Below, in pieces: positions 19,166-32,000 of a DNA stretch of 32,000 nucleotides (the stretch's first letter is position 1; every line of letters starts with the position of its first letter). The notes beneath the pieces are model-generated. The model ran no database searches. It saw only the letters and a list, made by a program, of their open reading frames with translations, and was not told where the DNA came from. The position numbers and the translations under genes are program-made. The stretch is from a bacterium. GTDB lineage: Bacteria > Bacillota > Clostridia > TANB77 > RGIG9151. Where the stretch lies: positions 7,040-39,039 of the forward strand of contig CAVHFU010000010.1 of assembly GCA_963635575.1 (NCBI GenBank), in the 5' to 3' direction.

Positions 19166-21229
19166 ATGAAAGTTTTATTTGCAATAAGTACTGAAAAAGG
19201 TGCTAACCAGATTATTGATTTTTATAAATCTACTTACGGTGAAAAGATTGAGGCAACGAAGGTATTCTTCTTTAGGGCACTGCTTGAGACACTCCGAAAA
19301 AATAAAGACTTTGATAGAATTGTCATTCACGAGGAATTAGAGCCAACAGGTTCTAAAAATCAAGACGCAATAGATAAATATCTTTTTAATAATTTAGATA
19401 AGGTTACTGATGAGGCAGGACGTGCGGACATTATTATTATATGTACTGAACGTAGACAACAAAATGATAAATTCGTTAAAACTTTATTTAACTTAGGAAT
19501 TTATAATGTTTTAACCGGGCAGGATAGAACTGTTGGAAAAGTATCTGAACTTATAAACAGACCTAGAACTAAAAAAGATGCGAAGATGTTTGTTGATGCA
19601 GATTTGACAGAAAATCCGTATGAGGCTGTTGATGCTGTTGATGAAATGGAATTAAGAAACACCATAAAATATTTTGAGAAGAATATTTTTAGTGAGGAAA
19701 AAATTGTTAACGGATTTGACAGTTTATATGAACAATATAATTTTGAAAAATTAAAACAGATTGTACCGTTTTTACCTGAAAAAGCAAGGGACGTATTACA
19801 ACAAAAATCTAGTAAATATGTTGCACTAATGAGTTATACTCCAGAGAAAAATGGCGGCAAAAAGCACAGAGATGAACCGGAAAGGGTAAAAGTAGTAGAA
19901 GTTCCAGTTTATATAAATAGAGTGGAAAGGATTGAGCAGGAGCCATCTAGGCCGATAGAAAAAGAGACATCTGCTCCTCAAATAAAGGAAAATGTGTTAG
20001 AAAAACCAAAGATTGAAATGCCCAAGGCAGAATCAAAAGTTGAGCCTAAAGTAGAACCTAAGGTTGAAATACCAAAGGTGGAAATAGTGCCACCGAAGCC
20101 AGAACCAAAGGTTGAAGTACCAAAGGTAGAAATAGTAGAACCACCGAAGGTAGAACCGAAGGTTGAACCTAAAGTTGAGCCAAAGGTTGAAATACCAAAG
20201 GTAGAAATAGTAGAACCACCGAAGGTTGAGCCCGTAGTACAACCTAGAGTGGAAGAACCTCGAATTGTTAGACCGACAGTACCACAACCTGAGGTGACTC
20301 AAGCACCTAGGTACCAACCACCAACACGTATGCCATCAGTAGAGCCACAAATTCAAACTGTAACTCAAGTCATCGAAAAAGAGGTAATACGTGAAGTATC
20401 CGAGGCACCAAGGGATTATAAGAAAGTTGTTGCCTTCATCGGTGCACATAAAACCGGTTCTACATTCTTAATTACTTCGGTTGCAACTGCACTTTCAAAT
20501 AAAGGTGTTAAAGTGGCTATTTTAGATTTAACTAAGAATAAAGATACGTATACAATATTTACCGGCGATGATGGAGAAGAAAGAGATGTCGCAGGAAATA
20601 GCTTAAGTAACCTTGTAATTGGTCAAAATCGTCCGTTAAAAGCAGGAAATATAAGTATATACACCGGTGTCCCAAGGACAGATAGAATTCCTAAGTTTGA
20701 TGTATATAAAGTTATAGAAACAGCAAAAAAAGATAATTCAGTTGTTTTGATTGATTGCGACTTTGTAACATCTCAAGAGGTATTTAGATATGTACAAACA
20801 ATATATGTAGTACAAGATATGGATATATTAAATGTTCTTCCGATAACAATGTTCTTAAAAGAATTAAAGAGTAACGAAATTGATTTGAGCAAGGTATCTA
20901 TAATAGTTAATAAACATTTAAAAATGTCTATTAGTGCTACTAAATTGGTTGAGATGTTGACATTCTATGTTAATCCGGAAGTTTCAGTTTTTGAGGAATT
21001 ATTGCCAAAGAACGTAAGAAGATTTATTGTTCCGTTTGATGAACAAAACTATTTAAGATATATGGAAAATTTATGTTTACGTAAGATGAACTTCTCCGGT
21101 TTCTCGGATGAGTTTAAACAAGCGATTGCAATTATTGTTCAAGACATCTTTCCAATCGGTGGATCTGGACCGATGCATAGACAACAGGCTGAAGATAGTT
21201 TTATAAAGAGTATATTTAGAAAAAGGTAA
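19166..21229 (+). CDS. Multidomain protein: receiver-like N-domain, Pro/Lys/Val/Glu repeat linker, ParA/MinD-like C-domain with a degenerate P-loop
   Basis: 687 aa with RBS ggtggtgagg. The N-terminal ~120 aa has a flavodoxin/REC-like alternation (MKVLFAIS...DRIVIHEELEP...DIIIICTE). The middle carries (E)PKVE repeats. The C-domain has KKVVAFIGAHKTGSTFLITSVATALSNKGVKVAILDLT and VVLIDCDF, resembling ParA/MinD/CpaE Walker A, A' and B. Confidence 0.7.
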   Translation: MKVLFAISTEKGANQIIDFYKSTYGEKIEATKVFFFRALLETLRKNKDFDRIVIHEELEPTGSKNQDAIDKYLFNNLDKVTDEAGRADIIIICTERRQQNDKFVKTLFNLGIYNVLTGQDRTVGKVSELINRPRTKKDAKMFVDADLTENPYEAVDAVDEMELRNTIKYFEKNIFSEEKIVNGFDSLYEQYNFEKLKQIVPFLPEKARDVLQQKSSKYVALMSYTPEKNGGKKHRDEPERVKVVEVPVYINRVERIEQEPSRPIEKETSAPQIKENVLEKPKIEMPKAESKVEPKVEPKVEIPKVEIVPPKPEPKVEVPKVEIVEPPKVEPKVEPKVEPKVEIPKVEIVEPPKVEPVVQPRVEEPRIVRPTVPQPEVTQAPRYQPPTRMPSVEPQIQTVTQVIEKEVIREVSEAPRDYKKVVAFIGAHKTGSTFLITSVATALSNKGVKVAILDLTKNKDTYTIFTGDDGEERDVAGNSLSNLVIGQNRPLKAGNISIYTGVPRTDRIPKFDVYKVIETAKKDNSVVLIDCDFVTSQEVFRYVQTIYVVQDMDILNVLPITMFLKELKSNEIDLSKVSIIVNKHLKMSISATKLVEMLTFYVNPEVSVFEELLPKNVRRFIVPFDEQNYLRYMENLCLRKMNFSGFSDEFKQAIAIIVQDIFPIGGSGPMHRQQAEDSFIKSIFRKR
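20030..20235 (+). repeat. In-frame tandem repeat array encoding PKVE-type repeats
   Basis: A 12-nt periodic unit (cc[at]aa[ag]gt[tag]ga[ag]) is iterated. There is also a higher-order 75-nt direct repeat: 20106-20151 versus 20181-20226, identical except for one base (gaagtacc versus gaaatacc). Confidence 0.85.
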
Positions 21230-24569: not shown

Positions 24570-26195
24570 ATGGATGAGTTAAATCAAAACGATAATTTAG
24601 TAAATGAAGAGGAAATGCCTAAAAAGAAGAGTAAGCTTGGAATGATACTAGGAATAATAGGCGGGGTAGTAGTCCTTGGAATAGTCATTTTATTAATATG
24701 TGTATTTTCATCAGTAAAATACAGATATTTTGGGTTAGTAGGTAATAAATTTGCGACTCTTACGAGTTACGTAGAGGATTTTGAAGAGGGCGTGTTTGGC
24801 AGAATTTTAAATACTAACTTTAATAATAAACTCACCATTAATACAGAGGTTAATGCTAAGGTAGAAACTGAGGACAAAGAAATATCTGCTTGGCTTAACG
24901 GATTTAATAGTGTCAAGTTAATTGCAAATGAAAATTCAGATATCAAAAATAATTATTTTGATTCAGATATAAAAATCGCATTAAATGGAGAGGACTTTAT
25001 TCTTGCAAATTTACTTAGAAAAGATGATACTTTTTTGGCAAATGTAGATAAAATAACTGATGGGTACATATCTGCAGATAATACTAAACTTTCTGAATTA
25101 TGGCAAAAGATAGGATATGAAGGACCTGAGAAATTTACATCACAAGTAGAATTTATTGAAGGATTTAAATTCTCAAGGAGTGAAAAAGCAGAATTATATA
25201 AAGCATTACTTAGGGTTGGAGATGCTTTTACTAAAGCTTTTGGAAAAGAAGATTTCTCTGAAGGAAAAGAAACAATTACTTATAATACAAAGTCTATTGA
25301 TGCAAAATATATTGATTTTAAGATGAACTCTGTTGAAATGAATAATGGCGTAATTCGTGCATTAGAACAATTATTAAAAGAAGACAAGGCAATAGACGTT
25401 TTGCTAAAATTATCGAATGCTTATGATAATATGTATATTCAAGCAGGTTATGATGTTGAACCGTTTACTCGTGATGAATTTGTTGATGCAATTGAGTATA
25501 TTTTAGAAGAAGTTAAAAAGCTTGAGTTTAGTGAAGAAGACGGAATGATAATAAGGCTTTACTATGAAGGAAATTCGATTGTAAAGGCTGAGGTATTTAA
25601 TATGAATTATACAAGCAGTGTATTAAAGCTTGTAATGATTGATGATGGTAGAGAAAAGTATTATGAATATAATAATGGTCTTATGAACTATGTAGATAAT
25701 GTATATATGGCTGAAAAAGATATTTGGACTCATACTATTGATGTAAATTATATTGATTATGAGACAGGCGAGTTTTTAGAAGATTATAGTGATACTATTG
25801 TTTTAACATTAAATTCTGCACAAAAAGATAACACTAAGTTAGTTATGACTTCGGATAACGGGAACTTTGAATATGTTTTAGAGGGAATAATTGACGGCAA
25901 TAAAAAGAATGTTAATTACAGTATGATTGCGTCTGATGAAACATCAACTAATAATATTAATATAAAAGTTGAGATTGTTGAAAAGACAGAATTTGAAGAA
26001 AAGAGTGTAGAAAATTCATTTGATACGTCTACTGCTACTGATGAAGAAATTAATGCAAAGAAAGAACAAGTTCTAAAAAATTGGAATGATTTTTCGAGTA
26101 AAAACGAAAATAAAATTAGTCAGTTATATACTGCATTATCTATTTATGTTGGTTCTATGACCCAAATGGATGGCGATTACACGGCTAATGAGTAA
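24570..26195 (+). CDS. Hypothetical single-pass membrane protein
   Basis: 541 aa with RBS aaaggagg. One N-terminal TM (LGMILGIIGGVVVLGIVILLICVF) is followed by a large Asn/Asp/Glu-rich extracytoplasmic region. I recognised no motifs. Confidence 0.6.
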   Translation: MDELNQNDNLVNEEEMPKKKSKLGMILGIIGGVVVLGIVILLICVFSSVKYRYFGLVGNKFATLTSYVEDFEEGVFGRILNTNFNNKLTINTEVNAKVETEDKEISAWLNGFNSVKLIANENSDIKNNYFDSDIKIALNGEDFILANLLRKDDTFLANVDKITDGYISADNTKLSELWQKIGYEGPEKFTSQVEFIEGFKFSRSEKAELYKALLRVGDAFTKAFGKEDFSEGKETITYNTKSIDAKYIDFKMNSVEMNNGVIRALEQLLKEDKAIDVLLKLSNAYDNMYIQAGYDVEPFTRDEFVDAIEYILEEVKKLEFSEEDGMIIRLYYEGNSIVKAEVFNMNYTSSVLKLVMIDDGREKYYEYNNGLMNYVDNVYMAEKDIWTHTIDVNYIDYETGEFLEDYSDTIVLTLNSAQKDNTKLVMTSDNGNFEYVLEGIIDGNKKNVNYSMIASDETSTNNINIKVEIVEKTEFEEKSVENSFDTSTATDEEINAKKEQVLKNWNDFSSKNENKISQLYTALSIYVGSMTQMDGDYTANE

Positions 26196-27920: not shown

Positions 27921-28029
27921 ATCAATGTTATCGGTCACGTGGAAACATATCCAGAATAGAGGGTTGACACTAGGGGATTGATAACAGACCAAGTGAACCC
28001 TAAAAGGGGTTCAATATTTTAAGTTGATA

Positions 28030-28058
28030 TTGCCAATCCCAACCAAACGGTTTATATT
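28030..28058 (+). promoter_or_regulatory. Possible promoter for the SymE-like gene
   Basis: TTGCCA (28030-28035), a 17-nt spacer, then TATATT (28053-28058). This would give a ~155-nt leader containing the hairpin gatgatg-N9-catcatc (28103-28125) and the 13-mer at 28157. Confidence 0.3.
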
Positions 28059-28156
28059 GATAATAACTTCATCTGATTCATACCCGTACTTCGTCTTATT
28101 TCGATGATGTGTCCCATGCATCATCACAAATCATTTTTACGTAGCATAAGGCTACG

Positions 28157-28169
28157 GTCCTGCACCAGG
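28157..28169 (+). repeat. Copy 1 of the 13-nt motif GTCCTGCACCAGG
   Basis: Exact match to 28827-28839. It lies 51 nt upstream of the ATG at 28220. Confidence 0.6.
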
Positions 28170-28219
28170 TTCGGTGCGATTATCAATTATTCAAGAATCT
28201 AATAGTAGAGGAGGATTTA

Positions 28220-28696
28220 ATGTTCACAAGAAAAGAACAGAGTTTATTTACTGACCCTTATTTCAAGATCGTAAGGGAAGAACAGCAGTATATTGAGGTT
28301 CAGTCTATCAACACCGGACACTGCTGGAATATTTTCAAGAATCAATTTGAACCTATCAGCAAGGTAAAACTGTATCACAAGCATAAAAGCACAGATCAGT
28401 ATTATCACGAGCATAGGAACTGCAGAACGGTTGCTGAGGCCGTTAAGGAAATAAAAGAGCATGATGAACATGTTCTTCAGGAGGCGGAGCGAAAGAAAGA
28501 GTGTAAAGAAAGCACTCCAAAGCAAGAAAGTCGCCATTTGAAAGTTTACACGACGACTGGCTATAATTACAAATCAACACCGATGATTATGCTGAAAGGC
28601 GAATGGCTTAGAAGCTGGGGATTTGATACGGGAGTTGAAGTCGACGTTATCTGTGAAGGTGATGGAAGGCTTACAATTAAAGTGGTGAATGGGTGA
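28220..28696 (+). CDS. SymE-like (AbrB/SpoVT-fold) domain protein with a His-rich N-terminal extension
   Basis: 158 aa with RBS GGAGGA at 28210-28215. The C-terminal RHLKVYTTTGYNYKSTPMIMLKGEWLRSWGFDTGVEVDVICEGDGRLTIKV follows the SymE-toxin-family pattern (...L.GKWLeeaGF..G..v.V....g.L.I). I did not recognise the N-terminal ~100 aa (KLYHKHKSTDQYYHEHRNC). Confidence 0.6.
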   Translation: MFTRKEQSLFTDPYFKIVREEQQYIEVQSINTGHCWNIFKNQFEPISKVKLYHKHKSTDQYYHEHRNCRTVAEAVKEIKEHDEHVLQEAERKKECKESTPKQESRHLKVYTTTGYNYKSTPMIMLKGEWLRSWGFDTGVEVDVICEGDGRLTIKVVNG

Positions 28697-28703
28697 TGAT
28701 ATG

Positions 28704-28739
28704 GCGTTACGGTGAAATAAACTGTAACGCTATATTTTT
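28704..28739 (+). terminator. Rho-independent terminator after the SymE-like gene
   Basis: gcgttacgg (28704-28712) pairs with ctgtaacgc (28722-28730), 9 bp with one G-U, followed by tatattttt. Confidence 0.6.
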
Positions 28740-28752
28740 AACATTTTGTAAA

Positions 28753-28772
28753 TTTGGTATGAGAATACCAAA
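28753..28772. promoter_or_regulatory. Perfect palindrome TTTGGTAT-N4-ATACCAAA abutting the -35 box (candidate operator)
   Basis: tttggtat (28753-28760) and ataccaaa (28765-28772) are exact reverse complements. The palindrome ends 5 nt upstream of the TTGACT -35 element. Confidence 0.35.
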
Positions 28773-28777
28773 ATATA

Positions 28778-28806
28778 TTGACTAGGAATAATTCTGATGA
28801 TATAAT
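28778..28806 (+). promoter_or_regulatory. Near-consensus sigma-A promoter with an extended -10
   Basis: TTGACT (28778-28783), a 17-nt spacer, then TGaTATAAT (28798-28806). The ATG of the next gene is at 28851. Confidence 0.7.
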
Positions 28807-28826
28807 ATCATTAAAAGGTTTAGAAT

Positions 28827-28839
28827 GTCCTGCACCAGG
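28827..28839 (+). repeat. Copy 2 of the 13-nt motif GTCCTGCACCAGG
   Basis: Exact match to 28157-28169. It overlaps the SD (AGGAGG 28837-28842) of the 28851 gene. Confidence 0.6.
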
Positions 28840-28850
28840 AGGAACTGACG

Positions 28851-30464
28851 ATGAACAAGAATGATGTAAGAATTGATAGAATATACTCCTTCTTCAATGC
28901 AATAAGAGGGAACAATACACCAAGTGAATACCAGAGCGTTCTAGCTATATTAAAAAAAGTCATGGTGCTGCAGAAGTGCGCATCCAATGAAATGGATTAC
29001 GATGAATTGTACCAGCTAATGATGAGCGTAGCTGAGGATTTTGAAATCGGAAACCCATTCCCTGATAAGGAAAGATTTGTAGATATCTATAGAACGTTAC
29101 AAGGGTTTGATGAAGTGACGTGGACAGATATTTTGGAATATGGTGATTCGAGAGCAAAGTTCAGAGCGCCGGAATCCGTTATTGATGAAATGGAGAATAA
29201 CTTTACTAATGGAGTGCGGGAAGTCCTAATCGCTGAAGCTGAGAAGTTTTCACCTTTCTTAGAAAGAATAATTGAAACTCATTGCGAGGCTCATTTTACT
29301 CTGACAACAATGGATAATTTGTACTACAAGATTTTAACAGAAATGTTCGATGACAATAAAATGGTAGATGTTAAGCAAACGAACATTTACCAATATGAAT
29401 TCACATCTGAACGTTTCGACCTGATCCTTGCGGTTCCGGTATTTGGCGTAAGGGATAAGGCGGATGAAGGCTCAGAGTTCATCTGTAGAGAATATGACAT
29501 GATTGCAGCAGAGAATCTGGCTCTTCATTTAAGAAGCGAGGGTGTGTTGTCTATCGTGCTTCCAGCCAAAATTACATTTGGCAGCGGGAATGTAAAAGAA
29601 TTAAGAGAGTTTCTACAGTCAATGTACTGCCTAAAAGAGATTGCAGAACTCCCTGCGGGAATCTTTGAAAATACCGGCGTGAAGACATTCCTCTTCAAGA
29701 TAACAACTGGAAGAACGGATGAGGTCACTATTAAACGTTTTGTATTTGAAGATGAGAATGCTCGTAAGAGTGGCAATAAAAAGCTTGTTCTTCAGGACGA
29801 TACCTTTGTTCTTGAAGATGAATTAACGGATATGGGTGACTGGAATGTTGACCGTATCTTTGAATCTCAGGATGAGGATTGGATTAAGTTTCAGGAGTCA
29901 AATGTGAAGAAGCAGGAGCTTGGAACTGTTGCAACAATCTTCAGAGGAAAATCTGTAAATCGCAAAGAACCGAATGGAAGTATTGGAGTTGTTAATATTT
30001 CCAATATAGGCGAATACGAGATTGACTATTCTTCACTCGACCATATTGAGGAAGAGGAACGCAAGGTAACGAATTATATCCTTCAGACAGGGGATCTACT
30101 GATTCCGGCCAGGGGTACTGCTATTAGAGTTGCTATTTTTGAAGAACAGCCGTATCCGTGCATTGCATCATCAAATGTGATTGTAATCAGAGCAACAGAT
30201 GTGAGCTTATCTACAACTTTCTTGAAGTTGTTCTTTGATAGTCCGCTTGGAAGAAAGATGCTTGTTACAAGGCAGCAAGGAACAGCTGTAATGAACATCA
30301 GCTACAAAGAGCTGAATAATATCGAAATCCCGCTTCCATCAATAGATGAGCAGAATTCGATTGCAGAAGAATATACAAGAGAGCTTGAAATCTATAAGAA
30401 GTCGATCCAGGCTGCAGAAAACAGATGGAACTCGACGTTAGCTAGACTTCAAGGAAGAATATAA
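28851..30464 (+). CDS. HsdM-like pseudo-methyltransferase fused to a single HsdS-type target recognition domain
   Basis: 537 aa. The N-terminal two thirds are colinear with gamma-class N6-adenine MTases: FRAPESVIDEM in place of YYTPRxVVxLM, VLIAEAEKFSPFL in place of VYDPACGSGGFL, FDLILAVPVFG in place of FDxVLANPPFG, then GVLSIVLPAKITFGSG...IAELPAGIFENTGVKTFLFKI. The C-terminal third is a Methylase_S-type TRD plus conserved helix (ELGTVATIFRGKS...LQTGDLLIPARGT...IEIPLPSIDEQNSIAEEY). Confidence 0.75.
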   Translation: MNKNDVRIDRIYSFFNAIRGNNTPSEYQSVLAILKKVMVLQKCASNEMDYDELYQLMMSVAEDFEIGNPFPDKERFVDIYRTLQGFDEVTWTDILEYGDSRAKFRAPESVIDEMENNFTNGVREVLIAEAEKFSPFLERIIETHCEAHFTLTTMDNLYYKILTEMFDDNKMVDVKQTNIYQYEFTSERFDLILAVPVFGVRDKADEGSEFICREYDMIAAENLALHLRSEGVLSIVLPAKITFGSGNVKELREFLQSMYCLKEIAELPAGIFENTGVKTFLFKITTGRTDEVTIKRFVFEDENARKSGNKKLVLQDDTFVLEDELTDMGDWNVDRIFESQDEDWIKFQESNVKKQELGTVATIFRGKSVNRKEPNGSIGVVNISNIGEYEIDYSSLDHIEEEERKVTNYILQTGDLLIPARGTAIRVAIFEEQPYPCIASSNVIVIRATDVSLSTTFLKLFFDSPLGRKMLVTRQQGTAVMNISYKELNNIEIPLPSIDEQNSIAEEYTRELEIYKKSIQAAENRWNSTLARLQGRI

Positions 30465-30476
30465 GGAGGTCGTTTA

Positions 30477-32000
30477 ATGTTAGGAGCGATTATCGGTGAC
30501 ATTGTGGGGTCACGTTTCGAATGGAATAATAATAGGAGTAAGGATTTTGAATTTCTCACATATAAGTGCTTTCCCACAGACGACAGCATTATGAGTCTGG
30601 CAGTGGCACAGGCAATTCTGGTTAGCAAGCCAGATCATAGTGACTTGTCTAAAAATGCTGTTGAATGCATGCAGGCGGTTGGAAGAAATTATCCAAACTG
30701 TGGTTATGGAGGAAACTTCTATGATTGGATCTTCTCAGATAGCCCTGAGCCATATAACAGCTATGGCAATGGCGCAGCGATGAGAGTGAGTGCTGCGGGA
30801 TTTGCAGCAGAAAGCTTAGAGGAAGTAAAACTGCTTTCTAAGTTAGTTACAGAAGTGAGCCACAATCATCCAGAAGGTATCAAAGGTGCCGAGGCTACAG
30901 CAGTTGCAATATATATGGCGAAAACCGGTAGCAACATGCTGGAGATAAGAGATTATATTGACAAGAACTATTATCCAATGGATTTCACACTGGATGAAAT
31001 AAGAGATACGTATCAGTTCAACGAAACGTGCCAGGATACAGTGCCTCAGGCATTGACAGCATTCTTCGAATCAACTGATTTTGAAGATGCAATTAGAAAT
31101 GCTATTTCCATTGGCGGAGACAGTGATACAGTTGCAGCTATTTGCGGCGGTGTTGCGGAAGCATACTACGGTATCCCTACAGATATCAGGAAACATGCGT
31201 TAACATTCCTGGACCAGCAATTGATGCAGCTGCTTATTTTGTTTGAAAATAAGTATCCGCCAATTATGGAGAAAAAACGTGATGACATGAGCGTTAGCAT
31301 CAAACGTTCTGCCAAGAAAAAGGTAAAGACGGGAGGTCGTGAAAAGATGATTCAGTCTGCTTCAGCTACTGCAGATCAGGAACTGAAAGAATCAATTCCT
31401 GAGAATGAAGAAACAACAAGCAAGAAGTTATTTGCTCATCTTTATGAGGCCTGCAATATACTTCGCGGACCTATTAATCAGGACGAATTCAAAGATTACG
31501 TTACACCAATCTTGTTCTTTAAGAGAATTAGTGATGTGTATGATGAAGAAACACAAGATGCTTTGGAGGCTTCAGGTGGGGACGAGGAGTTCGCTGCCTT
31601 TGATGAGAATCACAGTTTTATTATTCCAGATGGTTGCCATTGGAACGATCTCAGAAATGCAAGCAAGAATGTGGGTCTTATTATTGCAAAGGCTATGAAT
31701 GGTATTGAACGAGCAAATCCTGAAACGTTGAGTGGCGTATTTTCAAGTTTTGATGGTGTTACATGGACAGATAAATCCAAGCTGACAGATGAAAGATTAA
31801 AAGACCTGATCGAGCATATGTCTAGCTTGAAGGTTGGAAATAAGAATTATAGCGCAGATGTAATGGGAGATGCATACGAGTATCTCATAAAGAAATTTGC
31901 TGATCTTTCAAAGAAGAATGCAGGTGAATATTACACTCCTAGAACAATTGTCAAGCTTATGGTAATGCTTCTGGATCCGAAACCTGGTGACACGGTTTAT
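30477..32000 (+). CDS. hsdM: ADP-ribosylglycohydrolase domain fused in frame to the type I restriction-modification methyltransferase HsdM (3' end lies outside the window)
   Basis: This ORF is not in the supplied track because it is open at the window edge. I translated codon by codon from ATG 30477, with AAGGAGG at 30463-30469, and found 508 sense codons with no stop. Residues 1-~262 read MLGAIIGDIVGSRFEW...FPTDDSIMSLAVA...SIGGDSDTVAAICGGVAEAYYG (ARH family). A basic linker follows. From ~31422 the sequence is LFAHLYEACNILRGPINQDEFKDYVTPILFFKRISDVYDEE...GDAYEYLIKKFADLSKKNAGEYYTPRTIVKLMVMLLDPKPGDTVY (HsdM_N plus the start of N6_Mtase). Confidence 0.8.
   Translation, partial: MLGAIIGDIVGSRFEWNNNRSKDFEFLTYKCFPTDDSIMSLAVAQAILVSKPDHSDLSKNAVECMQAVGRNYPNCGYGGNFYDWIFSDSPEPYNSYGNGAAMRVSAAGFAAESLEEVKLLSKLVTEVSHNHPEGIKGAEATAVAIYMAKTGSNMLEIRDYIDKNYYPMDFTLDEIRDTYQFNETCQDTVPQALTAFFESTDFEDAIRNAISIGGDSDTVAAICGGVAEAYYGIPTDIRKHALTFLDQQLMQLLILFENKYPPIMEKKRDDMSVSIKRSAKKKVKTGGREKMIQSASATADQELKESIPENEETTSKKLFAHLYEACNILRGPINQDEFKDYVTPILFFKRISDVYDEETQDALEASGGDEEFAAFDENHSFIIPDGCHWNDLRNASKNVGLIIAKAMNGIERANPETLSGVFSSFDGVTWTDKSKLTDERLKDLIEHMSSLKVGNKNYSADVMGDAYEYLIKKFADLSKKNAGEYYTPRTIVKLMVMLLDPKPGDTVY

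Follow-up and report, generated by a model that had tools for sequence, protein, structure and literature searches.

Why would a predicted ADP-ribose-removing enzyme be joined to a restriction-modification (R-M) methyltransferase, and is the join real? The question is raised by a 32,000-nucleotide stretch of DNA from a member of the Clostridia (assembly GCA_963635575.1, contig CAVHFU010000010.1, positions 7,040 to 39,039; hereafter the window). Its last open reading frame was described in a first-pass annotation, made from the letters alone, as an in-frame fusion of an ADP-ribosylhydrolase (ARH) domain to the type I R-M methyltransferase HsdM. We conclude that this frame is almost certainly the 5' two-thirds of an 805-806-codon gene that carries an ARH domain on the N-terminus of M1, one of the two methyltransferases of a PacII-type R-M system.

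The single frame remains open for 508 codons from its ATG to base 32000 at the window edge, with no stop, and is preceded by a canonical Shine-Dalgarno sequence that overlaps the TAA stop of the preceding gene (Table 1). All three Pfam families expected of such a fusion were matched: ADP_ribosyl_GH (PF03747) on residues 1-233 (E 5e-32; 112 bits, cut-off 26.2), followed by HsdM_N (PF12161) and N6_Mtase (PF02384). Both aspartate clusters that had been read as metal-binding sites are intact, TDDS at residues 34-37 and GGDSDT at residues 213-218. The Lys-rich linker reported behind them spans about 50 residues (263-315), and the YYTPR...DPKPGDTVY entry into the methyltransferase is the last stretch of the gene before the window ends; on all of these points the first-pass annotation was borne out. 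Methyltransferase motifs I and IV fall just beyond the edge and were read only in orthologues, which continue with DPACGTGG in 23 of 24 copies and with NPPF in all 24. The genes 3' of the window were likewise deduced from orthologues, which are 85-96% identical.

The fusion is conserved and widespread. In a search of 5.8 billion clustered proteins, PF03747, PF12161 and PF02384 were found together in every one of the best 120 clusters, 117 of which had lengths of 805-820 aa and shared 80-91% identity with the window. Named sources of the matching clusters were Holdemanella biformis, Enterococcus cecorum, Clostridioides difficile, two Clostridium species and Listeria innocua. When one genome per species was scanned, 23 full-length copies were recovered, plus several cut by contig ends, from Lachnospiraceae, Oscillospiraceae/Ruminococcus, Erysipelotrichaceae, Peptostreptococcaceae, Enterococcus and Negativicutes; one more copy was on a short contig binned as Bacteroidales. 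Orthologues of the fusion occur in about 30 species, almost all Bacillota, and the same cassette was also found in Paenibacillus lautus and a Saccharofermentanales bacterium. The fusion was present on none of the 72,556 plasmid records in PLSDB. At one locus (L025, 4061-4847) a frameshift was seen within the ARH domain; this copy comes from a metagenome-assembled genome (MAG), so the frameshift may be an assembly error. At another (L030, 1067-2154) the ARH and linker are retained and the methyltransferase and most of the cassette are gone.

A stop or frameshift between the two domains had been named among the findings that would refute the fusion, and 24 independent genomic copies were found to read through the ARH-HsdM junction in frame. 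These 24 copies were aligned by codon, and medians of the ratio of nonsynonymous to synonymous substitution rates (dN/dS) were taken only from pairs with dS between 0.05 and 2.5. Median dS among the copies was about 1.5-1.8, near saturation. The dN/dS was 0.037 in the ARH domain and 0.037 in the methyltransferase core, 0.015 in HsdM_N and 0.176 in the linker; selection on the ARH part is thus as strong as on the methyltransferase part. D8, T34, D35, D36, D215, D217 and T218 were kept in all 24 copies and E15 in 23. The low dN/dS together with the conserved catalytic and metal-binding residues indicates that the ARH half has been kept as a predicted working enzyme within the fusion.

By profile match, both metal clusters, catalytic Glu and all-alpha fold, the N-terminal domain is a member of the ARH superfamily, as first proposed. 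Its closest solved relatives by sequence were ARH3 (E 8e-15), DraG (2e-8), Tri1 (1e-4) and ARH1 (8e-3), with an identity to ARH3 structures of only about 21-24%. E15 aligned with the catalytic Glu of ARH3. In ARH3 numbering we take E15 to correspond to E41, T34-D35-D36 to T76-D77-D78 and D215-x-D217-T218 to D314-x-D316-T317. AlphaFold2 (AF2) modelled residues 1-262 with a predicted local distance difference test score (pLDDT) above 90, and Foldseek matched the domain to ARH3 structures (E about 4e-10, template modelling score about 0.6 of the target). T34, D35 and D36 are each conserved in at least 90% of 98-104 family members; in a set of 39 sequences (A4), T34 and D36 are invariant and D35 is kept in at least 90%. 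The domain scored well below the cut-offs of the DraG equivalog TIGR02662 (52.7 bits against 337) and the Tri1 equivalog NF041672 (28 bits against 490). Hydrolysis of an ADP-ribosyl linkage is the activity predicted for the fused domain.

The fusion partner is M1 (NPPF, adenine-N6) of a PacII-type two-methyltransferase type I R-M system. The HsdM N-terminal domain of the first-pass annotation held up, but its description as a textbook HsdM did not, since the top Foldseek hits were structures of the PacII M1M2S methyltransferase (PDB 7VRU and 7VS4), from an already characterised subgroup. Sequence comparison gave reciprocal best matches. The fused M1 core gave 440 bits to PacII M1 (7vru_A) versus 399 to 7vru_B, and the next gene in orthologous loci, M2, gave 545 bits to PacII M2 (7vru_B) versus 430 to 7vru_A; Foldseek identity was 42% to PacII M1 and 38-40% to PacII M2. 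NPPY was present in all 22 M2 copies and an NSPME loop in 21 of them. Both hsdS and hsdR, which had been anticipated downstream, follow M2 in orthologous loci. The first target recognition domain (TRD1) of HsdS resembles that of S.PacII (7vru_C, E 6e-27), and HsdR is 969-971 aa long. Every orthologous locus with enough sequence has the order pMS537 (an upstream companion gene described below), ARH-M1, M2, HsdS, HsdR, and on the rest of the cassette PADLOC reported only type I R-M and mad-system models.

In the PacII subgroup the genes are ordered M1-M2-S-R, and M1 with NPPF produces N6-methyladenine (m6A) while M2 with NPPY and the NSPME loop produces N4-methylcytosine (m4C) (Morgan et al. 2016, PMC5100572). 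PacII M1, M2 and S form a clamp around DNA, and restriction of unmodified DNA is carried out by their complex with two HsdR subunits (PMC5100572, PMC9613975); the M1 N-terminal domain helps to close the clamp (Zhu et al. 2022, PMC9613975). From this homology, a heterotrimer of the cassette's own M1, M2 and S is expected to place m6A in one half-site and m4C in the other and, with two HsdR subunits, to translocate and cut unmodified DNA. Non-fused relatives about 47% identical were found in Bacteroidota, Verrucomicrobiota, Patescibacteria, Calditrichota and on a Streptomyces plasmid. They share the M1-M2-S-R order, but their M1 is about 495 aa long and has no N-terminal extension; the ARH and pMS537 are both in all fusion loci and both absent from these relatives in other phyla. 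HsdS of the cassette varies from 27 to 100% identity between loci, and in several loci a tyrosine recombinase and a spare or half hsdS lie beside hsdS and hsdR (Table 1), which suggests that the specificity of this PacII-type system is switched by recombination.

The region between the two domains appears to carry a trace of its origin. The first part of the linker corresponds to the C-terminal tail of free-standing ARHs, those of loci L036 and L040 ending inside it, and the middle looks like a former intergenic region. AF2 confidence is low throughout the linker except in a helix at 288-306. Within it lies a GGGAGG sequence followed by an ATG (Table 1), which was overlooked in the first-pass annotation, as was pMS537. 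In the 2.4-kb codon alignment GGAGG is kept at this site in 19 of 24 orthologues, and the only other aligned site retaining it in 10 or more copies (21 of 24) serves as ribosome-binding site of the overlapping gene hsdM2. GGA makes up only 35% of the Gly codons in the fusion genes. The internal start is probably maintained actively, and an ARH-less M1 of about 516 aa is probably made as well, so that only some complexes would carry the hydrolase. In the clade of L019, L021, L027 and L057 the internal start has been lost, and M1 would be made there only in its ARH-fused form.

The gene directly upstream of the fusion encodes a 537-aa protein, designated pMS537, that is present in every fusion locus with upstream sequence. 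It belongs to a family of about 710 protein clusters whose only database label is 'restriction endonuclease subunit S'. Pfam placed Methylase_S at residues 350-506 and a partial N6_Mtase at 186-314, and the AF2 model (pLDDT 75) consists of a gamma-class methyltransferase fold, then one TRD, then a long C-terminal helix. The model resembles single-chain proteins with methyltransferase and TRD, namely the V. vulnificus M-S fusion, CamA, BpuSI and M.TaqI; the succession of a gamma-class fold and one TRD is likewise found in M2.PcaI with its extra TRD, in the V. vulnificus M-S fusion (7EEW), in CamA and in BpuSI. Unlike those proteins, the pMS537 orthologues all lack the S-adenosylmethionine-binding glycine motif and NPPF/Y, and their TRD is invariant. 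Since VLIAEAEKF stands at motif I and xPxFG at motif IV in 20 of 20 orthologues, methyltransferase activity of pMS537 is very improbable. The TRD of pMS537 hardly differs between loci, whereas the HsdS of the cassette varies, which suggests that pMS537 reads one fixed target. This TRD showed only 21-26% similarity to both TRD1 and TRD2 of the cognate HsdS, too little to pair it with one or the other, and a profile comparison of pMS537 with M2 gave a weak match. An ADP-ribosyltransferase hidden in the N-terminus of pMS537 was considered and ruled out, because residues 1-330 all model as the gamma-class methyltransferase fold. Given that pMS537 was acquired together with the ARH and has one invariant TRD, it probably works with the ARH.

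Relatives of the ARH domain are numerous and varied in architecture. A profile-free exhaustive search of 1.84 billion representatives returned 9,200 relatives, 1,816 of them with E<=1e-30. Among the top 150 (P0121-P0270), free-standing proteins of about 265 aa are mixed with proteins in which an N-terminal ARH precedes very different partners. HsdM fusions account for two of the 98 long family representatives scanned. The other partners include DUF6508 (6), SseB (5), GNAT, HD_4, DUF1810, Macro, protein kinase, patatin, RecA, a TnsA-like nuclease and RNase_T, and most partners had no Pfam match; in two other fusions the partner is PADLOC candidate-defence family PDC-M09A. As an N-terminal module, the family of short ARHs is unusually promiscuous. 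Related bacteria also have free-standing ARH genes, with about 80% identity to the fused domain, and these adjoin HipA, AIPR, RlaP-type nucleotidyltransferases or a Y-family polymerase; no ADP-ribosyl transferase was found among the neighbours of the free-standing genes. The family was found in 8 of 50,697 phage records (phrog_6572).

Table 1. Features of the window, and of orthologous loci where a locus is named, with positions and supporting evidence.
Feature	Position	Strand	Evidence or remarks
ARH-HsdM1 fusion gene, first 508 of about 806 codons	30477..32000	+	Cut by window edge; 90-91% identical to full-length 806-aa proteins P0001-P0006
Shine-Dalgarno AAGGAGG of fusion gene	30463..30469	+	7 nt before ATG 30477; direct reading of sequence
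ARH domain, residues 1-262	30477..31262	+	Pfam PF03747, ARH3 matches, AF2, dN/dS
First metal-binding cluster, T34-D35-D36-S37 (TDDS)	30576..30587	+	Conserved in fusion orthologues
Second metal-binding cluster, G213-G-D215-S-D217-T218 (GGDSDT)	31113..31130	+	Aligns with ARH3 GGDTDT
Basic Lys-rich linker, residues 263-315	31263..31421	+	Highest dN/dS of the gene, low AF2 confidence
Internal GGGAGG, 10 nt, ATG (Met291)	31331..31349	+	Probable second start, giving ARH-less HsdM1 of about 516 aa
HsdM N-terminal domain, residues 320-447	31434..31817	+	Pfam HsdM_N PF12161, E 2e-23
Start of N6-adenine methyltransferase catalytic domain, residues 459-508	31851..32000	+	Pfam N6_Mtase PF02384, E 3e-15
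pMS537, 537 aa	28851..30464	+	Methyltransferase-like domain, one TRD, C-terminal coiled-coil helix; directly upstream of fusion gene
SymE-like gene (type I toxin family, AbrB fold), 158 aa	28220..28696	+	Pfam SymE_toxin E 8e-9; NCBIfam SymE E 7e-8, below cut-off
Slot inserts in orthologous loci	L011 3017-3979; L012 2001-2966; L013/L016 9006-9992; L020 9351-9980		320-aa, 328-aa (C-terminal HNH-like motif) and 209-aa proteins
Tyrosine recombinase, spare or half hsdS in orthologous loci	L002 17999-18967; L013 18576-20089; L019 15695-17821; L057 15689-16663; L064 15673-17301		

The surroundings of the cassette point to mobility and to defence. GC content is 0.30-0.36 in the chromosomal part of the window (1-28000) and 0.385-0.41 in the cassette (28001-32000), a step consistent with horizontal acquisition downstream of a tRNA/rRNA U5-methyltransferase gene. 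The cassette is 69-96% identical across families, with recombinases nearby. Relatives of the SymE-like gene also lie upstream of the cassette in L004, L006 and L020, and this gene lies at the upstream edge of the island and is possibly part of the mobile cassette; its product is extended at the N-terminus by about 100 residues. Between pMS537 and the fusion gene lies a short, variable slot, occupied in some loci by different inserted genes that look like embedded accessory defence genes. In L003 (1-5783) the cassette adjoins an SRA-McrBC system and a protein with an SRA (ScoMcrA-type) domain, and in L063 (7985-8800), from Paenibacillus lautus, it adjoins a SduA_C (Shedu) gene; a serine recombinase is also among its neighbours in such defence-island contexts. 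The rest of the window is ordinary chromosome, with ThiI, EF-Ts, the ATP synthase operon and MutS2. Two large open reading frames in this part, 19166-21229 (687 aa) and 24570-26195 (541 aa), had no Pfam match at E<=1e-3.

What might the ARH do on M1? The reading that we favour, tentatively and with somewhat less than even confidence, is that it travels with the R-M complex as an on-board eraser and clears away ADP-ribose marks by which restriction would otherwise be disabled. The marks would be attached by invader-encoded ADP-ribosyltransferases (ARTs), either on the R-M complex or on the DNA being read. Both possibilities, protection of the complex and stripping of ADP-ribose from DNA, had been raised in the first-pass annotation and are plausible. 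The ARH, tethered by the flexible basic linker to the M1 N-terminal domain, would remove them and so keep restriction and self-methylation working, as an anti-anti-restriction module. The complex would carry at most one ARH, because M1 and M2 differ. Long-term conservation in frame, intact catalytic residues and the strict co-acquisition of the ARH with pMS537 within one R-M clade argue for this reading, as do the two ARH fusions to PDC-M09A and the defence-island contexts of the cassette. It also has precedents in the use of ARHs for enzymatic immunity to ART toxins (PMC3482391) and in the DarTG2 eraser-writer pair embedded in a type I R-M operon (PMC12255303).

Several observations weigh against an on-board eraser. 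Among the genes of five annotated loci (L001-L003, L063 and L064) there is no ART family, and the ARH domain had no match to any PADLOC model. To our knowledge, no ART targets type I R-M enzymes. The free-standing ARHs about 80% identical to the fused domain and the many unrelated partners suggest an activity that is generic rather than specific to R-M, and the internal start suggests that M1 can function without the ARH. The AF2 model of the fusion has no confident ARH-HsdM contact, and its predicted template modelling score of 0.45 and poorly modelled HsdM part mean that no inter-domain geometry can be claimed. Base-linked ADP-ribosylation of DNA is reversed by macrodomain and NADAR enzymes, an activity that is not known for ARH enzymes (PMC11543638).

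The main rival reading is co-inheritance without mechanistic coupling. The ARH would then be a general-purpose de-ADP-ribosylase of the Imm-ARG/Tri1 kind that neutralises, wherever in the cell they arise, the marks left by interbacterial toxins or phage enzymes; it would have become fused to hsdM1 when a stop codon was lost, and the fusion would have been kept because two defence functions are thereby co-expressed and co-transferred. We judge this rather unlikely, but about as likely as either of the functional readings, protection of the complex or stripping of DNA. A history of this kind accounts for the close free-standing relatives, whose C-terminal tail runs into the present linker, for the relic-like ribosome-binding site and ATG at the junction, and for the linker being the least constrained segment. 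It fits a domain with so many fusion partners (DUF6508, SseB, GNAT, HD, Macro, kinase, patatin and others) and one that is a predicted enzymatic immunity domain (PMC3482391). Simple co-inheritance is, however, less easily reconciled with a frame kept across lineages whose synonymous sites are nearly saturated, with about 30 loci among which no variant has a separate ARH gene, with the clade in which loss of the internal start makes M1 obligatorily ARH-tagged, and with acquisition of the ARH strictly together with pMS537 inside one R-M clade.

It is improbable, in our view, that the ARH serves self-regulation, by reversing an endogenous ADP-ribosylation of the R-M subunits or pMS537 and so shifting the balance between restriction and methylation like a switch, for instance while the cassette becomes established in a new host or when DNA has been damaged (restriction alleviation). 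So mobile a cassette, with recombinases alongside, would need control of establishment, and two isoforms from the internal start could set the stoichiometry, but the annotated cassettes contain no cognate transferase and the PacII-type relatives in other phyla work without an ARH. More improbable still is a substrate that is a free NAD-derived nucleotide, such as O-acetyl-ADP-ribose, ADP-ribose-1''-phosphate or a cyclic-ADPR-type signal, with the HsdM fusion merely localising or stabilising the ARH. The nearest solved relatives are ARH3 enzymes, which also hydrolyse O-acetyl-ADP-ribose; the domain is short (262 aa versus about 350), and some family members are fused to nucleotide-handling Macro or HD domains. 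Against such a substrate, no signalling or NADase gene is present in the annotated cassettes, and a tether to a DNA-bound complex has no evident purpose for a substrate that diffuses. That the fusion is an artefact or pseudogene, two genes joined by a frameshift or mis-assembly, is hardly credible. The window does end inside the gene and the MAG copy in L025 does have a frameshifted ARH, but the same 805-806-aa reading frame recurs in hundreds of independent assemblies, from isolates as well as metagenomes, with strong purifying selection on both halves.

The on-board eraser can be extended to include pMS537, although we regard the extended form as a speculative and improbable one. ADP-ribosylation would in that case be an unrecognised anti-restriction axis, answered by a reader-eraser pair of pMS537 and the M1-tethered ARH. 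Phages or conjugative elements of gut Firmicutes would ADP-ribosylate the type I complex, their own DNA or host DNA and thereby evade restriction; pMS537, with a base-flipping fold devoid of catalysis and an invariant TRD, would find the marked site; and the tethered ARH would clear the ADP-ribose, opening the DNA to reading, methylation or cleavage.

An accessory enzyme attached to a type I complex is familiar from EcoprrI-PrrC, in which an anticodon nuclease answers a phage counter-measure against restriction. PrrC, unlike the fused ARH, is a separate polypeptide and a suicide nuclease rather than a repair-type hydrolase. ARH3 (PF03747; 6G1P, 2FOZ, 6D36) shares with the present domain the all-alpha fold, the two Asp/Thr metal clusters and the catalytic Glu, whereas the bacterial domain described here has about 90 residues fewer and is joined to a DNA methyltransferase. 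PacII (PMC5100572, PMC9613975; 7VRU/7VS4) has the same M1(NPPF)-M2(NPPY)-S-R order and M2 NSPME loop, and a similar HsdS TRD1. It differs in that M1 here has a 262-aa N-terminal ARH plus linker and is preceded by the extra pMS537 gene, and in that the present clade belongs to Bacillota and frequently includes a recombinase with spare hsdS pieces. ADP-ribose, an N-terminal fusion and a pMS537-type gene go unmentioned in both PacII papers, where 'ADP' occurs 0 times (PMC5100572, PMC9613975). In Tri1/Imm-ARG (Zhang et al. 2012, PMC3482391) an ARH likewise erases hostile ADP-ribosylation in biological conflict, but no ART toxin lies adjacent here, as judged from the neighbours in L001-L003, L063 and L064. 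The nearest parallel in placement is DarTG2, located between hsdS and hsdR in a type I R-M island of enteropathogenic Escherichia coli (EPEC) (RRDM; PMC12255303), which is likewise an ADP-ribose eraser inside a type I operon in a defence island. DarG, however, is a macrodomain encoded by a separate gene and paired with the DarT writer, whereas here the eraser has the ARH fold, is covalently part of the HsdM polypeptide and lacks a writer. In the same five annotated loci, none of the genes was assigned to a DarT, Macro or NADAR family.

The first-pass annotation had also regarded the architecture as unfamiliar. This was correct for the literature searched, in which an ARH fused to HsdM or to a type I R-M system is nowhere described and only unrelated co-mentions were found; the architecture is not rare, since hundreds of clusters have it under no label other than 'N-6 DNA methylase', and it is uncharacterised. 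The R-M core, as a structurally solved subgroup, and the ARH fold were already known. The covalent ARH-M1 fusion, the constant pMS537 companion and the possible pair of M1 forms with and without ARH are new, none having been found described.

Type I R-M enzymes are among the commonest barriers to gene flow, and the present cassette has spread horizontally among Firmicutes of human and animal guts, such as Clostridioides difficile, Listeria innocua, Enterococcus and Holdemanella. That an ADP-ribose eraser is covalently attached and strongly conserved implies an agent that ADP-ribosylates either the restriction machinery or the DNA on which it acts. If this is true, a new class of anti-restriction and its matching counter-measure would be at hand, and ADP-ribosylation in phage defence (DarTG, CmdTAC, Tre1/Tri1) would be linked to classical restriction. 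The eraser hypothesis lends itself to direct testing, since cloned PacII-type systems are already functional in E. coli. Should the coupling prove to be only genetic, the possible M1 pair, pMS537 and the asymmetry of one tagged subunit per complex would still be new for the PacII subgroup.

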